64,000 nt of DNA. It comes from a virus. Each line of letters begins with the position of its first letter. The first letter of the stretch is position 1. The stretch spans positions 1 through 64,000 of IMG/VR virus record IMGVR_UViG_3300045996_001613. One strand, given 5' to 3'. Position numbers and translations under genes: made by a program. The notes under the pieces were generated by a model. It made no database searches. It saw nothing but the letters and a program-made list of their open reading frames with translations, and was not told the origin of the DNA. Positions 18,748 through 44,855 of the stretch are shown here, in pieces.

Positions 18748-18765
18748 TTGTGAACGGATTCACAA
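18748..18765. promoter_or_regulatory. Rex/CRP-type operator 1
   Basis: TTGTGAACGGATTCACAA. Confidence 0.7.
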
Positions 18766-19680: not shown

Positions 19681-22324
19681 ATGGTTATTGAGTTCTTTAT
19701 AACGGATGATACAGAAGGGATCGAGTACGGTCCGTTCGGCACCCCGCAAGAGGCTTATGATATAGATGTATCAATGGATATGTATAAGCCTGCAGTAGTA
19801 CGCCGGATAGATTGTGACTATCGTTCCGATGTTGAGGTAGACCGGGATGGGAATGATAAGCCTAGCTTAGACGCCCACTACGATAGGCTTAACGCTCGCG
19901 ATAGGGCTACGTACGGTATGAGCCCGCAGCAGATAGAGCGACACGACAGTATGTAACAAATGTATCCAGGGTGTAGCGTGCACCACGGCGTACGGGGCGA
20001 ACCCACTACACCCACTAGTAATAAGGGCTACGAGGTCAGGAGATAAGGGTATGTCCGCCACAACAGTCGAGGTCAAGAAGTACGGTGCATGCACCATCCG
20101 TATCAAGGTTACAGTGGTACGATGATAGCCTACAGGATCTATGAAGAAAGGGACGGGCAACTGTACCCACTGCAGCACAAGACACGCACCCCGGTACCCT
20201 TGAACGAATGGATGCAAGCAGACGTAAAGATGGCGCGTGATGGGTCAGGCAACAGATGGTACAAGGCGGGCTTCCACTCTGTACCTCGTATCGAAGATGC
20301 CGAGGCTTATATGCAGCATTTCAGGTCAGCCCGTCGCGAGAGGTTAAGGGTCGTCGAGGTCGAGGTTAGCAACACATGGAGCAAGGACCACTCGCCTGCC
20401 CCTGTGATCCTGTCGGAGTACATGTTGGTTAAGGGTATCGTAACTACGCAAAACACAGATTTCAATCCGAGGTCTCAGAGCTGTGATCTCGGGGAGGAGG
20501 CATAGCATGCTAGCGCAGGACGTAAAGCCTTTGGAGCGTGAGCTTCTGGACCACCTGTATCAGGTGTTGCTTGAAGCAGAGAACGATGAGCTACCGAACC
20601 CAGACCGGATACGCAAGGCACGCGCCGACTATGCCGCATGCGAGGAATGGTATGCAAGGAAGTACAGCGTAGACATGGAGGTTGCATCGTAATGCATGTT
20701 GCGAAGTACGAGATCAAGGCAGACGGGCGCAGGGTCGGCGTCGCGGATAAGCCTGATCAGGCCAGCGACGCGAGGAAGAAGTATCGCAACTATGGCTACA
20801 AGGTGGAGGTCAAGAAGTTCAGAGTGTGAACGAATTCACAGCGGGGGATAAGGGTAGGGCTTAGACTAGTGTCAACGGTAACGGAACGAACGGAGGACAG
20901 GATGCAGTACCTAGACCGGAACTACAGCAGCAAGGCCGCAGTCAAGAGGGCTCTGGCCGAGGGTGCCGAGATCAGGGTCAACGTGGTTGAGCCGCAGATC
21001 TCGGGCCGCAGCGTCAAGAGCAAGAAGTTCGGCACCGTGACCGAGCACACCGTCGCGGGTCCATGGTTTCCCCAGCCGCATAGCTGGTACGGCAACGTCC
21101 GCGTCAACGACGCGGGCCTCGTGGTCGAGGTCAAGTAATGGCGCAGACCGACGAGACCAAGGCGATCAAGGCAAAGGTACGGGCCGCGAAGCAGAATCTG
21201 CAGAAGGCAGAGAGGCTGATCCTCGACGCGGAAAAGGGCGAGGTCAGCGTGCACATCGGTAGCCTACTGGCCGCGGGATACGCGATGATGGCAACACACG
21301 ACGCGCAGGACGCGGAGCGCAACGCTCGCGGACTGCACGCGGCGACGGAGGACAGCTACCACGAGGAGGTCTCGGCGTAACGCCGGGACCTCTCTACCCG
21401 AAGGGAGCAGCAATGCCAGCCATCACCCCGGAGCAGATAGACCAGAAGTTCGGCGGACAGTACTCCGAGAACTACACCTTAGGCGTACGCCATGGGGTCA
21501 AGGCCGAGACCAGCGTAGTGCACGCGACCATCGGTCGCGCAGAGGACAACCTGTTCGCCACGACCGAGGCGCAGTGGGACTACCTCGACGGTTGGGTTCA
21601 GGGGCGCGTCGAGTGGGACGCGGCGGTTGAGGGCGATCAGGTCTACGAGCAGTATGCTCGGATGTTCACGGACGGCAAGTTCGACGTGACAGACATGGTG
21701 CGATTCTTCCTCGCGGACCTCGCGACGGAGGACGTGTACATCGCGATACCCGCGGCAGGCGACCCGTTCGCGGCTGCTCTGCGCGAGGCCGAGTGCGATA
21801 TGCTGGCTCTGTACCTCGACGACAAAATCACTGCCGACCAGTACCTCTATGCGAGGGGAGCGTAAGATGGAGCAGAAGTACGTCGTAGCCGAGCAAGACC
21901 CGAGCCTCAGCCCGAGCCGTGAACTCGGGCTGTCCTCCTCCGGTGTACGGATGGACCTGTACTCAGCCCTGTCGACGGCTGCGGAAGCAGCCCGCAGGTA
22001 CGGCACAGCACATGAGGTCCGCGTCGTGACCCGCGAGTATGACTCCGGCACGTTCGCGGTCGGGGCCAGCCGGTACACCGTCGACCCCTCGGAGGTCAGC
22101 GCATGAGCATGACTCTGACGGACGTACGCAACGCGGTACCAGCCATGACCGACGGCATGCTGGTGGAGCTATACTGCCAGTACAGCACCTTTGCCGACCG
22201 TAACCCTGACTCCGACGAGGGGCGATACAAGGCGAAAATGGAGATCGTAGACGCGGAGTCTAAGAAGAGGCACCGTCCACACGTGGACGCGAAGAAGGCG
22301 ACGAAGTGGGGGTATTGGAAGTGA
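19681..22324 (+). other. run of small hypothetical early genes (19681-19956, 20122-20505, 20507-20692, 20692-20829, 20902-21138, 21138-21380, 21413-21865, 21867-22106, 22103-22324)
   Basis: co-oriented, RBS-bearing, often translationally coupled ORFs. Confidence 0.65.
20825..20840. promoter_or_regulatory. Rex/CRP-type operator 2
   Basis: TGTGAACGAATTCACA. Confidence 0.7.
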
Positions 22325-23049
22325 ACATCGCAGTGCTATTCGACGGCGCAGGGCTCGCACGACTCGGGCTAGAGCAGGCGGGGCATACGTGCACCGGATA
22401 CGAGCTAGATCCGTGGAAGCACTACCTCTCGCAGTTCGTGGGCTCGGGGAATTCCGTGCTCGCGGACGTACGCGACGTGGACCTGTCCCCCTACGATGCA
22501 GTGTGGGCATCGCCCCCGTGCCAGTGGCACAGCAGCGCACGCACGCAAGGGGACCCGGTCTCGGGCTTCGCGACCGATCTCCTAGAGTGGTCTCTGAACC
22601 TCGACGTGGGTGTCCTGTGGGTGGAGAACATCATGAGCCAGACTGCCAGCCTCAATACGTGGGGCACCAAGTACAACGCGGCTCAGTTCCTATCCGTCCC
22701 CATCCAGAATCGCAACCGCATCGTCGGCGGTCACTATCGCGAGCCGTTTGTGTACGCGAGCTACCGGCGTACGTTCGCGGGGATCTGCCCCTGCATCACG
22801 GCCAGCGAGTACAAGGGCTGCGCCTCCGACACGCGCAGGGCGTCGCGCTACTACGGGCGTCGCCTGACTGTCGGGGAGTGTGCCGACCATCAGGGGCTCA
22901 CCATTCCCCCCGAGTGGCACACCGTACCCGAGGGATTCACGCCGGGACGTTGGAGGCAGAATCTCTACGAGGCGATTGGTAACGGGGTCCCCGTCTACAT
23001 GGCGCGTGGCTTCGGTGAGATGTACCCGGCGAAATCCAGGGGATTGTAA
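22321..23049 (+). CDS. DNA (cytosine-5) methyltransferase, short
   Basis: LFDGAG, SPPCQ, ENI, QNRNR, RRLT..EC...QG, IGNGV. Confidence 0.9.
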   Translation: MNIAVLFDGAGLARLGLEQAGHTCTGYELDPWKHYLSQFVGSGNSVLADVRDVDLSPYDAVWASPPCQWHSSARTQGDPVSGFATDLLEWSLNLDVGVLWVENIMSQTASLNTWGTKYNAAQFLSVPIQNRNRIVGGHYREPFVYASYRRTFAGICPCITASEYKGCASDTRRASRYYGRRLTVGECADHQGLTIPPEWHTVPEGFTPGRWRQNLYEAIGNGVPVYMARGFGEMYPAKSRGL

Positions 23050-23070
23050 CTGCCGGCACAAGCTCGAGAT

Positions 23071-23086
23071 TGTGAACGAATTCACA
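23071..23086. promoter_or_regulatory. Rex/CRP-type operator 3
   Basis: TGTGAACGAATTCACA upstream of a GATAAT -10 box. Confidence 0.7.
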
Positions 23087-23159
23087 GACAACGGTAGCCG
23101 AGTAGGAGATAATGCGGGAGCAATGAGAAGGACAACGACAAGGGGAGAGACATGTGAAC

Positions 23160-23466
23160 TCAGAGGGGCGAGCCTGACGGTCCTGACCCCAACAGGCGAG
23201 ACGGTCGGAGTACCAGACCGGCGGGGATGTGGGCGCGAGCCCGTGCATGAAAGAGAGCACACCCAGCGAGGGCCGCTGGTAAGGAGGCTCACATCCCCTG
23301 ATGGCGAGGCAGATACGGGCGCAGTGGTGCGAACGGCTCATGGGGCTGATCACCCCGGCAAGCCTAGTAGCACGGTGAAAATCCCACGGCTAACTGCCGT
23401 GCCGATGGCGACAATGGGGCTGATCACCCCGGAGTCGACCGGGAAAGCTGCGCCGGTATCTGCCCC
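23160..23466 (+). ncRNA. putative large structured RNA with twin UGAUCA-loop hairpins
   Basis: long helices 23223-34/23287-98 and 23308-24/23448-64; 19-nt repeat at 23340 and 23414. Confidence 0.65.
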
Positions 23467-23486
23467 GACCACGAATGGAGGAGCAC

Positions 23487-23669
23487 ATGAGACCGCCAGC
23501 ACGACATACGGTGGACGGGGTGCACAAGCGCACCGGGATGATAGTCACGGTGAAGCTGGGCTTCGCCTCTCACCGGGATGCGCACAACTACATAACCAAG
23601 CACCTGACCGAACTGCACGTCAGGGGAATAGACCCGGTGCACGTCGGGACGGACAGGACGGGCGCGTAA
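23487..23669 (+). CDS. small hypothetical protein inside ncRNA cluster
   Basis: GGAGGAG RBS; 60 aa. Confidence 0.55.
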   Translation: MRPPARHTVDGVHKRTGMIVTVKLGFASHRDAHNYITKHLTELHVRGIDPVHVGTDRTGA

Positions 23670-23738
23670 TGGGTTCGACGGGTGCAACGGGCGCGAGCGC
23701 CCAACACCCGGAGGAGAGTTCGATTCTCTCCGCGTCCA
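23660..23738 (+). ncRNA. mini-tmRNA (tRNA-like domain only)
   Basis: G3.U70 and A73 acceptor stem, stemless D-loop UAAUGGGUUCGA, helix 2a, 3-nt linker, T-arm. Confidence 0.8.
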
Positions 23739-23741
23739 CTA

Positions 23742-23872
23742 CGAGTCCCGGCATGGTACGGGAGAGACACGCTGAAACACCACGCACGGCCACTGCGGTA
23801 GTCATGACCCGCATGCTTTCAAAGTGTCTCTGGTTGAATATACGCGACTCTCCCACACCATGCCGGGGCTCG
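23742..23872 (+). ncRNA. putative structured RNA
   Basis: CGAGTCCCGGCATGGT pairs with ACCATGCCGGGGCTCG; nested helices. Confidence 0.55.
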
Positions 23873-23913
23873 GCTGTAGTCAACACCGACCGGGAGGTCT
23901 GACCGTGGACACT

Positions 23914-24750
23914 ATGGACCTGCACAACTGGCGTGAATGGAGCGCAGAGCAGTTCGCCCTCGACGCGGAGGCCGAGGTCTCCGAGGACGAGATAGCCGCG
24001 AGCTACGCGGCCACGAACCCCCACGAGGAGGTAGAGTAATGACCGGAGTACACGGCCCACTGGTCGTCCGCGAGGTCTGGATCGTCGGGCCAGTGATGTC
24101 GGAGTTCGTCGGCTTCATGAACCGCGTAAATTCCCGCATCAAGGTCGGCAGGATAGCCGAGCTAAATGGGTGGGAGGTATGGGATCGCGAGATAAACGAG
24201 ACACACGACACCTTTTGGCTGAGGGAGGCATCATGACCACCACGAGCATCGCGAAGGCCCGCCAACAACTCAAGCGGCAGTACCGGAAGATATCGACCGG
24301 CGTGCTCTATGGATGGATGGCCGTCTACCTCGTCGAGGACAACGAGTACATGTGCACCACAATCCGCGAGGTACTGCGGGAGAGGGGCGAGCAGATATGA
24401 TGCACCTAGAGTGGCATCTGGACAAGCTGAACGACGCGGCTAACGAACTAGCCCACAACGCCAAGCACCGCGAACTGACCGAGGAGGAGATCGTCGAGTT
24501 CAAGCAGGAGTTCACCGACCAGATCCGCAACCTGCAGGACGAGGTATCGTCCCTCGGAGGACACCTGACCGACGCGGTAAACGAACTGTACGAAATGCTG
24601 CCGAAGTGCGAACAGTGCGACGAGATCCTGACCGAGGACAACATCGCGGACACGGCAGACCTACGAGACGCGAAGGTCTGCGCCGACTGCCAGTACGACA
24701 TGGACCCCATGAACGACGTGAACTACGTCGGTCACCCGATGCACTACTAA
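23914..24750 (+). other. four small hypothetical genes (23914-24039, 24039-24236, 24233-24400, 24397-24750; last has Zn finger)
   Basis: coupled ORFs with RBS. Confidence 0.6.
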
Positions 24751-37166: not shown

Positions 37167-37844
37167 GTGGCTTCTGAGGGGTACTACACCAAATTCTCGA
37201 ACTACGTCTTCGATCACATCATGCCCGAGTTGAGCCCCGCGGCTTTCAAGGTACTGATGTTCATCATACGCAGGACCCTCGGCTGGAGAAAGGAGTGCGA
37301 CGAGATCTCCTATTCTCAGTTCATGGAGGGCACCGGCATCGGATCGGAGCACACCATCAAGAAGGCTATAGACGAACTAGATAGCAAGGGCTACATCAAG
37401 GTAGACCGCGACCGGGGTGTGAGTAATTTCTACTCAATTAATACTCAAGTTTTGAGTGTCACGACCACTGTAGAAAGTGCAGAGGATACCACTGCACAAA
37501 GTGCAGAGGATGGCGGGGGGACCTCTGCAGAAAGTGCAGACACAAAAGAAAGTGGTAGGAAACCTTCGGTTTCCAACGATGAAGACATAGCTGTGACCGA
37601 GTTGCAGCGATGCGATAAGTTCCCCGATGAATACAAACCCAACATCCAGATGATCAGGCGCATTGCAAAGGATTACCCAAAGGTGAACGTAATCATGGCC
37701 GTGTCCTCCGCGGTCAACGCGATAGACGAGGGGGAAAAAGTACGTAGTCCCTACGGATTCCTGCGGTATTATTTCAAGAGAGAAGATGCGCTAAGAAAGA
37801 AATCATGGGAGGAACAGTACGCTGATGCAAACATCGTCAACTAA
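37167..37844 (+). CDS. replication initiator (lambda O-like winged HTH)
   Basis: GYYTKFSN, KVLMFIIRRT.GW, ISYSQF...TG; upstream of helicase. Confidence 0.85.
   Translation: MASEGYYTKFSNYVFDHIMPELSPAAFKVLMFIIRRTLGWRKECDEISYSQFMEGTGIGSEHTIKKAIDELDSKGYIKVDRDRGVSNFYSINTQVLSVTTTVESAEDTTAQSAEDGGGTSAESADTKESGRKPSVSNDEDIAVTELQRCDKFPDEYKPNIQMIRRIAKDYPKVNVIMAVSSAVNAIDEGEKVRSPYGFLRYYFKREDALRKKSWEEQYADANIVN
37464..37540. repeat. three iterons, probable replication origin
   Basis: ACCWCTGYASAAAGTGCAGA three times inside the initiator gene. Confidence 0.75.
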
Positions 37845-43448: not shown

Positions 43449-44855
43449 TTGGCGTATAAGGCGATCATAGCGCGAGTCTACACCCGTCCACACCCCAACG
43501 CGGATCGCATCCAGCTTGGGGAGTGCCGCGGCTATCAGGTAATCGTGGGCAAGGATGTAGAGGACGGGACCCTCGGAGTCCTGTTCCCTCCGGACGGTCA
43601 GTTGTCCCACGAGTTCTGCCTTGCGAATGAATTGTATGCAAGGCACCCCGAGACCGGGGAGAAGATGAAGGGGTTCTTTGACAAGAACCGTAGGGTCAGG
43701 GCTCAGAAGTTTCGCGGAGAGAAGTCAGAGGCGTTCTGGACGGGTCTGGAGAGCATTTACAAGATGGCGGGACTGCGGGACTGGCGGAAGGATCTACCCG
43801 AGGGCAAGGAACTCGACGAGTACCTTGGCATGTCCCTATGTCAGAAGTACGTCACCCCCGCGACGCGCAGGGCTCAGGCCAACAAACAGCAGGCGGCTCG
43901 ACGTGAGCTACCGAATTTCCACAAGCACTTCGACACGGATCAGTTGAAGAGGGAGATAGACTACATACCCGAGGGGGCGTTGCTGTACTTCACGGAGAAG
44001 TTACATGGCACGTCTCAGCGCAGCGCATACCTCACGGTCGAGTCTGACCACAAGCTGCCGTGGTTGCAGAGGCTCGGGTTGTGGTTGAGCCGCATTCCTT
44101 TTGCACCCCCAACGCAAGACGAACACCTGCTAGGCACGCGCAACGTAGTCCTCGGTCGGTACGAGGGCAAGAGCTACTACGGATCTGAGGGGTTTCGGTA
44201 TCGGCACCATGACCGCATTAAGGACAAGCTGCACCTTGGAGAGACGGTGTACTACGAGGTTGTCGGGTTTACCGGGCCTATCTCAGGAGTGCCCGAAGAC
44301 CCCTTCCGGGCGTGGGACGCGAACGTCGCGCCGATCATGCCCGCGGTCAGCACCAAGGCGCTAAGAGACCATTGGGTGTCTTCTCCTGATCAGAAGGTTG
44401 CCGAAAGCGTCAAGGGCCGGTTTCCCGAGATGTACGGCGACACTATGTGGTACACGTACGGCAATTGGGAAGCGGACAGTCCTGCAGCCCCTCGTGCGAT
44501 GGGTGGATCGGAGATCTACGTCTACCGCATCACGCAGCAGAATGCGCAGGGCATCGTGCTCGACCTATCGTGGGAACAGGTGAAGGGACGGTGCGAGGAG
44601 TTGGGCGTCCCGCATGTGCCAGAACTGGCGGCACACAAGCACCACTGGAGAACGGAAGCCCTTATGGAACATGCGGAACAACTGGCCGAGGGACCCTCGA
44701 CACTCGACAGGACTCACATACGCGAAGGCGTATGTGTCCGTTGGGAGAAGGGAAAGAAGATAGGTATACTAAAGCACAAGTCATTCGAGTTTCTAGTGCT
44801 GGAGGGCGTGGTGAAGACCGACGAGAACTATGTAGACTTGGAGGAATCCTCGTGA
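43449..44855 (+). CDS. RNA ligase (DRB0094/Rnl5-like, N-terminal OB domain)
   Basis: HPNADRI, EKLHGT (motif I), YYEVVG, REGVCV, KHKS.EF. Confidence 0.85.
   Translation: MAYKAIIARVYTRPHPNADRIQLGECRGYQVIVGKDVEDGTLGVLFPPDGQLSHEFCLANELYARHPETGEKMKGFFDKNRRVRAQKFRGEKSEAFWTGLESIYKMAGLRDWRKDLPEGKELDEYLGMSLCQKYVTPATRRAQANKQQAARRELPNFHKHFDTDQLKREIDYIPEGALLYFTEKLHGTSQRSAYLTVESDHKLPWLQRLGLWLSRIPFAPPTQDEHLLGTRNVVLGRYEGKSYYGSEGFRYRHHDRIKDKLHLGETVYYEVVGFTGPISGVPEDPFRAWDANVAPIMPAVSTKALRDHWVSSPDQKVAESVKGRFPEMYGDTMWYTYGNWEADSPAAPRAMGGSEIYVYRITQQNAQGIVLDLSWEQVKGRCEELGVPHVPELAAHKHHWRTEALMEHAEQLAEGPSTLDRTHIREGVCVRWEKGKKIGILKHKSFEFLVLEGVVKTDENYVDLEESS

Follow-up and report, generated by a model that had tools for sequence, protein, structure and literature searches.

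A structured non-coding region upstream of a small orphan gene in an uncultured soil phage: a possible leader RNA built around a direct repeat

A real and unusual structured non-coding region precedes a small orphan gene in the genome of an uncultured soil phage. It is long, non-coding and exceptionally well-folding, and on the sense strand it follows closely on a promoter-like site; for these reasons a structured RNA is its most natural reading. It is perhaps a little more probable than not that the element functions as an RNA of the + strand. The fuller proposal, that it is as a whole the cis-acting leader of an early cassette and serves RNA processing, stability or protein binding, is possible and is put forward tentatively. 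The sequence itself had been described correctly in an earlier note. As a single-sequence prediction without homologues, the structure described here has its worth as a lead and not as a result.

The phage is represented by an IMG/VR virus record of 83,577 bp, which carries 127-bp direct terminal repeats and is rated complete. The first 64 kb of this record constitute the window. The GC content is 56.6%. The identified genes of the phage include those for a major head protein, a portal, a DnaB-like helicase, an RNA ligase and two cytosine methyltransferases, and five tRNAs are present. The + strand carries the genes from ~18.6 to 47 kb, among them all the genes adjoining the element. Upstream, a methyltransferase gene extends to 23049, and the following gene to show a codon-position GC pattern begins at 23487. 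The features of this interval and its surroundings are collected in Table 1.

Table 1. Features of the element, its flanks and the matching contigs of a freshwater relative (window coordinates)
Feature	Position	Strand	Remarks
16-bp palindrome TGTGAACGAATTCACA, putative regulatory box	23071..23086	.	centre ~41.5 bp upstream of inferred start
Promoter-like site CAGACA-17-GATAAT	23085..23113	+	promoter scan: 1 site vs 0.2 expected in shuffles
5′ leader segment without significant structure	23120..23222	+	bipartite motif CAGAGGGG ... GACCCCAACAGGCGA, 23162-23199
Domain 1	23223..23298	+	predicted 8-12 bp closing helix enclosing two or three small hairpins, exposed UAAGGAGG
Domain 1 closing arms GGGGATGTGGGC / GCTCACATCCCC	23223-23234 / 23287-23298	+	12 nt, 92% complementary
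Domain 2	23305..23467	+	163-nt rod-like imperfect hairpin, 56 predicted pairs, 6 G-U
Domain 2 arms	23305-23324 / 23448-23467	+	20 nt, 90% complementary
19-mer copy 1, ATGGGGCTGATCACCCCGG	23340..23358	+	predicted pairing partner is copy 2
19-mer copy 2, ATGGGGCTGATCACCCCGG	23414..23432	+	predicted 16-bp duplex with copy 1
Small orphan gene, 60 aa	23487..23669	+	codon-position GC pattern; +0.29 bits per codon
Tag-less mini-tmRNA (tRNA-like domain only)	23660..23741	+	RF00023, 55.7 bits, gathering score 47
Second long hairpin, end of cassette	23742..23872	.	30-nt arms, 83% complementary
X7 contig 1	23180-23306		1 difference (126/127 identical), then 23 unrelated letters
X7 contig 2	23613-23741		14 differences (14/129)
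X7 contig 3	24052-24088		6 differences

Coding potential was scored by codon log-odds trained on ten annotated genes of the phage. On this scale real coding chunks reach +0.36 +/- 0.16 bits per codon and wrong frames -0.28 +/- 0.22. The flanking genes lie at +0.29 to +0.72, whereas all ORFs that cross the region fall between -0.28 and +0.11, including ORF 22880-23902 (-0.13), the antisense ORF 22937-23353 (-0.28) and a 25-codon ORF at 23301-23378 (+0.03, a value that favours neither class). The codon-position GC pattern is absent from ORF 22880-23902. Neither of the two long ORFs has a Pfam match, and both yield junk-like translations rich in Cys, Arg, Ser and Pro. A tmRNA-like tag frame was sought in the ORF translations and by eye, and none was seen. 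From the low codon scores, the negative Pfam searches and the junk-like translations we conclude that 23051-23486 is non-coding; the earlier claim that no credible gene is present holds for this interval.

The region folds far better than shuffled sequence. For 23150-23480 the minimum free energy (MFE) is -159.9 kcal/mol with a z-score of -6.0, and 0/100 shuffles are as stable; the reverse strand gives -159.4 and a z-score of -5.0. When the parts are folded separately against 300 shuffles each, the signal is unevenly distributed. The first segment, 23120-23222, has no significant structure (z +0.76 on the + strand, +0.6 on the - strand). Domain 1 has an MFE of -37.2 (z -3.3 on +, -3.0 on -) and domain 2 of -92.0 (z -6.7 on +, -6.0 on -), with 0/300 shuffles as stable in either case. 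The downstream ORF 23487-23659 scores -1.2 on + and -0.2 on -, and hairpin 23742-23872 scores -5.6 on + and -7.2 on -. The earlier description of about 300 nt of structured RNA is thereby narrowed: 23223-23467 folds beyond chance and 23120-23222 does not.

The genome itself provides a second scale. Among 522 GC-adjusted windows of 320 nt, window 23150, which was placed on purpose, ranks second with a z-score of -2.7, and the grid window 23201 ranks third; the first rank goes to window 64801, beyond the 64-kb window. The fold signal is real and comes mainly from domain 2, and on the genome's own scale it is strong and not extreme. Domain 2 and the downstream hairpin are both retained when the whole 786-nt cassette is folded. 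No strand preference of the fold was detected, with equal numbers of G-U pairs on the two strands (2 vs 2 in domain 1, 6 vs 6 in domain 2). Since MFE and G-U content are alike on both strands, a palindrome that acts at the DNA level fits equally well.

Both pairs of closing arms announced for the two domains are present where they had been placed. Within domain 1, the predicted small hairpins are GGGC-GCGA-GCCC, GUGC-10 nt-GCAC and CCAGCG-5 nt-CGCUGG. Pair probabilities in this domain are just 0.27-0.76, which implies alternative folds. Among local inverted repeats of the window, the two best are formed by the arms of domain 2 and by those of hairpin 23742-23872. The identical 19-mers reported at 23340 and 23414 are likewise exact, and no other perfect local direct repeat of at least 16 nt occurs in the 64-kb window. 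At up to 3 mismatches the window holds exactly these two copies, and the next-best site in the whole 83.6-kb genome has 4 mismatches. The copies are spaced by 74 bp (about 7 helical turns) and each has a TGATCA dyad core. A role of TGATCA in methylation or restriction was considered and dropped because GATC and TGATCA counts in the phage are unremarkable, with neither avoidance nor enrichment.

Domain 2 is predicted to form a rod composed of two long helices and a branched tip. The outer helix (23305-23325 / 23447-23467) has 19 predicted pairs interrupted by two 1x1 mismatches. The inner helix (23334-23357 / 23415-23437) has 22 predicted pairs with three single-base bulges, and an internal loop of ~8 x 9 nt, with 3 predicted pairs within it, separates the two. 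In this fold each 19-mer is the partner of the other: GGGG pairs with CCCC, UGAUCA with UGAUCA and CCCC with GGGG, with C23346 and C23420 bulged. The outer helix and the helix between the 19-mers have probabilities of 0.99-1.0 in the thermodynamic ensemble.

The earlier note had instead proposed that two arms of this domain end in hairpins with UGAUCA loops, suited to kissing. The hairpin in question, GGGG-CUGAUCA-CCCC, has a stem of 4-5 bp and a loop of 7 nt that includes the self-complementary hexamer UGAUCA. It is a model and not an observation, and both its copies have an ensemble probability of ~0. A forced twin-hairpin fold reaches -83.4 kcal/mol, 8.6 short of the rod; the folding software is blind to loop-loop contacts, and this gap excludes any bonus from them. 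On these calculations the rod and not the twin-hairpin state is the predicted ground state. Since the 19-mers are predicted to pair as an extended duplex, the self-complementarity of the palindrome is already spent in cis, and the kissing-loop claim finds no support. Folds of the nascent chain (ends at 23360 and 23400) indicate that the first local hairpin forms and is displaced after the second copy has been made.

As direct repeats the two copies match perfectly (19/19); as complements they are imperfect (two bulges). Both strands of the predicted duplex share one sequence, and the duplex is for this reason exactly two-fold symmetric; what such symmetry requires is direct 19/19 identity and not perfect complementarity. 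Selection for identity would accordingly agree with either of two designs, a pair of equivalent units or a site whose symmetry matches a homodimeric partner. The idea that the element presents two sites to a dimeric protein thus fails for separate hairpins and may survive, altered, as a two-fold symmetric duplex. An exactly symmetric bulged duplex built from a direct repeat would be an unusual and readily testable design.

Upstream of the element lies a 16-bp palindrome. With up to 1 mismatch allowed, the window contains 4 copies of it (18749, 20825, 23071 and 24752; 0.27 expected). The copy at 18749 has 1 mismatch. A related phage, G001, holds 3 exact copies. At 20825, 23071 and 24752 a -10-like hexamer follows ~21 nt past the palindrome, a class II-like spacing. 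From the promoter-like site we infer that transcription starts near 23120. The distance from the inferred start to the gene is 367 nt here, and a leader of this length would be exceptional, as the putative promoters at the palindromes of 20825 and 24752 would give 5′ UTRs of only ~30 nt.

The 60-aa gene product has no homologue besides itself, and Pfam and PHROG searches with it were empty. Its single-sequence AlphaFold model (pLDDT 78.7) adopts a beta-beta-alpha-beta fold. A neighbouring 65-aa protein likewise has no homologues but itself, an identical copy being encoded on a second contig. The leader, the 60-aa gene, the mini-tmRNA and the second hairpin look like a self-contained early cassette; a terminator-like site was sought and not found. 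An attachment-site reading of the locus was dropped: the mini-tmRNA has both ends, and a search of the phage for a tyrosine integrase found none.

These observations can be arranged into a tentative scheme. An early transcript would start at the palindrome-controlled promoter (23071-23113), on the + strand, to which all the neighbouring genes belong. Its non-coding 5′ part, 23120-23486 (~367 nt), would run on into the 60-aa gene, the mini-tmRNA and the long hairpin. The structured core, 23223-23467, would consist of the multi-hairpin domain 1 and the 163-nt rod of domain 2. The outer ~20-bp and inner ~22-bp helices of the rod are candidate dsRNA substrates, of a size recognised by homodimeric enzymes of the host, for example RNase III. 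Cleavage or binding at the rod would part the domain-1 RNA from the mRNA/mini-tmRNA part and might set the stability of each. The enzyme would have to come from the host, as neither an RNase III nor a dsRBD protein was found among the proteins of the phage.

Phage early transcripts contain hairpins processed by RNase III, as in the lambda N leader. Like the predicted rod, such sites are extended, imperfectly paired hairpins with about two helical turns, located between early polycistronic units and just upstream of a small early gene. However, the rod is longer, and its tip is more branched, than the classical sites. RNase III substrates contain near-continuous dsRNA of ~20 bp or more, a length that the predicted rod helices have. 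This helix length is the sole basis on which RNase III is named, and we do so with low confidence. The element fits best among the structured leaders or processing rods of phage early transcripts, as an unclassified variant.

If transcribed and functional, it would represent a structured RNA module, as yet unclassified, within an early phage cassette that is mostly RNA (leader, mini-tmRNA and hairpin). Such a cassette would offer a compact system for how phages turn RNA, rather than protein, on host translation and RNA surveillance. Observations that count against the leader reading include the equal folding on both strands, a genome z-score of -2.7, the negative search for a phage RNase III or dsRBD protein, the state of the nearest relative, G001, which lacks the two domains, the divergence of a freshwater relative, and the lack of such an element upstream of TLD-only genes in other phages. 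The last three are described below.

Searches for homologues of 23160-23470 retrieved none from IMG/VR, JGI metagenomes, GTDB genomes, INPHARED or PLSDB. In INPHARED, blastn gave no useful match, the one hit being 32 nt long with an E-value of 0.3, and the PLSDB plasmid search gave none. A scan of IMG/VR with a 15-mer core returned 56 stretches, with two copies in 0/56; a domain-1 18-mer returned 0 and a domain-1 17-mer 2 chance matches at gene boundaries. In JGI metagenome contigs an 18-mer matched 11 stretches, and in all of them similarity extends over at most 33 nt. The 17-mer core matched at least 120 stretches of GTDB contigs; among those listed all are single-copy, and the longest flank similarity is 41 nt at 85%. 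Among 401 genomes from the phylum of G005, 2/401 contain chance-level matches of 24-43 nt, and among three further genomes 0/3 have a match. Because homologues are missing from these collections, covariation has no basis. Against Rfam 15 (4227 models, including 6S, GOLLD, ROOL, T-box, riboswitches and ribozymes), 23160-23466 has no match at gathering thresholds, and with E-values up to 10 no family matches the element within 22950-24050. Some further resemblances were considered and none is claimed: likenesses to T-box, 6S and Y-RNA, and a mimic of an anticodon stem-loop, the loop CUGAUCA being similar to that of a GAU anticodon.

Relatives of the phage were reached through its proteins. The methyltransferase led to 2 loci and the portal to 3, in 4 records that are fragments 14-80% complete; domains 1 and 2 occur in 0/4 of them. 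In the nearest relative, G001, identity to the phage is 80% for the methyltransferase and 65% for the portal. Both domains are absent from the 39 kb at hand (47% complete), and the methyltransferase gene there leads directly into other genes. G001 has a mini-tmRNA of 134 nt with the same acceptor stem as here, downstream of a different gene. It shares with the leader only the bipartite motif at 23162-23199, including a 15-nt exact match, and in a scan of IMG/VR it is the sole other record with that motif. The early region is mosaic between the relatives.

A tag-less mini-tmRNA is known from mycobacteriophage DS6A (PMC4131195). The present locus resembles such a cassette with a tRNA-like domain only, and the element sits 190 nt upstream of its mini-tmRNA. 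With a T-arm/acceptor pattern as anchor we retrieved at least 119 stretches, 6 of which were viewed by eye. The matches listed are mostly tRNA-Ala genes or tmRNA 3′ ends, and none of the 40 longest BLAST matches listed around the T-arm pattern reaches outside the T-arm region. No upstream structured element is present at the other phage mini-tmRNA or TLD-only loci DS6A, L223, L269 and L249 (also L312). Since DS6A, G001 and these other loci lack an upstream structured region, the association of the structured element with the mini-tmRNA is not general.

The sequence was located in 7 runs, with no RNA run among them. Three soil studies contributed contigs, which match the window without a difference wherever they cover it; in runs X2 and X4 contig cover of the stretch is incomplete, a gap that carries no weight as evidence. 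A diverged relative is seen in the freshwater run X7, as three 151-nt contigs at depth 2, a single observation. The contrast between the first two contigs (1/127 vs 14/129 differences; Fisher p 7e-4) suggests constraint on domain 1 or recent exchange. Divergence begins at 23306/23307, which is the left arm of domain 2, and domain 2 must thus be replaced, rearranged or absent in this relative.

Absence from the closest relative, and a break that in X7 falls precisely on the left domain-2 arm, also suit a reading without any selected function. The element would then be a palindromic insertion or a recombination scar (a MITE-like or duplication product) in a mosaic early cassette, and its 20-nt terminal inverted arms agree with such an origin. 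However, it is single-copy in the phage, no target-site duplication was found at the arm ends, and the matches of the 17-mer core listed from at least 120 genome loci are isolated chance matches without flanking similarity. The identity of the contigs from three studies and the near invariance of 23180-23306 in the diverged X7 relative also stand against a scar. We consider this reading fairly unlikely. A MITE or other mobile palindromic element in the strict sense was rejected: inverted arms are present, but multiple copies are not, the 401-genome search having given chance-level matches only.

The equal folding of both strands is also expected if the repeat acts as DNA. The 19-bp sites may be operators to which a dimeric protein binds; this could be the 60-aa product, which would then regulate its own gene. 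There are two perfect copies and none else in the genome, each has a dyad core, and they lie upstream of a small orphan gene that looks real. The dyad is, however, one base off centre (GGGG-C-TGATCA-CCCC), and operators would leave the 20-nt arms of domain 2 and the further rod helices unexplained. No promoter-like site was found between the 19-mers and the 60-aa gene. The model of the 60-aa protein shows no recognisable DNA-binding fold either: in a Foldseek comparison with the PDB the best E-value is 0.47 and nothing is significant, and the leads from the protein atlas are sub-threshold. Operators are an unlikely explanation.

Closest to the earlier proposal is a stand-alone ncRNA in which the twin identical UGAUCA-loop hairpins kiss or drive homo-oligomerisation. 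GGGG-CUGAUCA-CCCC is a legitimate hairpin and the first to form on the growing chain, and the direct identity of the copies also suits two equivalent units. The energy gap is only 8.6 kcal/mol, much of which an unscored 6-bp loop-loop contact could offset. At equilibrium, however, the local hairpins are predicted at ~0 and the inter-copy helix at ~1.0. The element also has neither a family match nor a homologue, and the X7 relative keeps only the first bases of domain 2. We judge the kissing arrangement distinctly unlikely.

In the retroviral DIS a kissing complex converts into an extended duplex. The present hairpin is similar in that the UGAUCA palindrome sits in a short GC-closed hairpin loop, so that loop contacts and a symmetric-bulge duplex are both possible. 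It differs in that one molecule contains both copies, at a distance of 74 nt within a closed rod, and in that prediction makes the extended duplex the ground state. GOLLD and ROOL RNAs are several hundred nt in size and adjoin tRNA genes. The element is similarly a candidate large structured phage ncRNA adjoining a tRNA-like gene; unlike them, it has ~245 structured nt, no covariance-model match and no homologues among the collections searched. Large phage-associated RNAs of this kind form homo-oligomers (PMC12286853), which also speaks for oligomerisation here.

A rod-like RNA of 160-300 nt with an internal loop, as predicted here, calls to mind the 6S and Ms1 RNAs, and the element could be a decoy that ties up the RNA polymerase of the host in early infection. 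Domain 2 supplies a predicted rod, with the internal loop between two long helices. Homologues of Ms1 (~230-300 nt) escape both BLAST and Rfam across genera (PMC9130861), and the negative Rfam scan is for this reason weak evidence against a decoy. Neither 6S nor another family was matched, however, even at E-values up to 10. The ‘bubble’ is small and partly paired, and the element occupies a 5′ leader instead of a separate gene. A polymerase decoy is very improbable. The likenesses to DIS, GOLLD/ROOL, 6S/Ms1 and RNase III sites are of design only.

In a more elaborate idea the element is an undescribed phage ncRNA and the 19-mers act as a conformational or dimerisation switch. Twin hairpins on the nascent RNA and a kissing complex between them would pass into the two-fold symmetric duplex, and the element would, jointly with the co-transcribed mini-tmRNA, seize control of ribosome rescue or RNA turnover in the host early in infection. 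This must be regarded as a long shot.

Two readings are refuted outright. That 22880-23902, the antisense 22937-23353 or the 25-codon upstream ORF encodes a protein has next to no chance of being right: all three frames are open, a strong AAGGAGG stands 14 nt before the ATG at 23301 and GC is slightly higher at one codon position in 23140-23300, but the codon scores, Pfam results and translations reported above speak against it, and the 74-nt spacing puts the 19-mer copies out of frame with each other. A replication origin in the 23.3-kb region is contradicted by the lack of a GC-skew turn at 23.3 kb; iteron-like 24-nt repeats sit instead at 37464-37544, beside the DnaB-like helicase gene.

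The end of the small gene coding for a 60-residue protein and the beginning of the mini-tmRNA, which consists of a tRNA-like domain only and lacks a tag, occupy the same stretch of DNA. In the mini-tmRNA, the 5′ strand of the acceptor stem, 7 nt long (23660-23666), shares its sequence with the final codons of the gene (23658-23669), and the stop codon TAA (23667-23669) follows immediately 3′ of this strand. If the tRNA-like domain received its 5′ end by an RNase P-type cut, the mRNA of the 60-residue protein would lose its stop codon and become a non-stop mRNA. Non-stop mRNAs are substrates of the rescue system, which tag-less tmRNA is thought to inhibit. One 10-mer, GGGCGCGAGC, is common to the first hairpin of the leader's domain 1 (copy at 23231-23240) and the hairpin that caps the mini-tmRNA (copy at 23689-23698), which may be due to chance.

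The nearest related phage (G001) also carries a mini-tmRNA, which scores 50.1 bits against RF00023, encodes its CCA and has the GGGCGCG acceptor stem in common with the mini-tmRNA of the window. It is located behind a gene cassette with a palindrome promoter. Tag-less or very short tmRNA-like genes of about 67-112 nt are furthermore present in unrelated IMG/VR phages (loci L223, L269 and L249), and ARAGORN calls no tRNA at these three genes. Such genes seem to be a recurrent kind in phages.

In both the window phage and G001, a CRP-type palindrome stands at the head of early cassettes. Since this palindrome recurs and the genes behind the 20825 site, the 24752 site and one G001 site share the beginning ATGCAGTAC, our analysis suggests that early cassettes are shuffled while keeping the promoter and the start module in common.

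The long hairpin which follows the mini-tmRNA has a minimum free energy of -72.8 kcal/mol on the minus strand versus -62.7 kcal/mol on the plus strand (z of -7.2 versus -5.6), with nine versus three G-U pairs. This preference hints at antisense transcription or a role at the DNA level.

Coordinates of features in the window and in G001
Feature	Window	G001	Details
CRP-type palindrome	18749, 20825, 23071, 24752	L327 (mini-tmRNA locus) 1173-1188	TGTGAA-N4-TTCACA
G001 mini-tmRNA		L327 1501-1634 = G001:34088-34221	134 nt, longer than the window's copy
Long hairpin	23742-23872		3′ of mini-tmRNA; better folding on minus strand
Three tandem 24-nt repeats	37464-37544		identity 100, 92 and 75%
RNA ligase gene	43449-44855		phrog_968, E 5e-58

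Besides the mini-tmRNA, the phage possesses an RNA ligase gene and five tRNAs, and it seems to devote resources to RNA functions connected with tRNA and translation. The tandem 24-nt repeats, about 300 bp upstream of a DnaB-like helicase gene, could be either iterons of an origin or operator sites. Lastly, when the whole genome was scanned with adjustment for GC, folding energy was strongest outside the window, at 64801-65120 of the complete phage genome (z -3.0, MFE -159.4).
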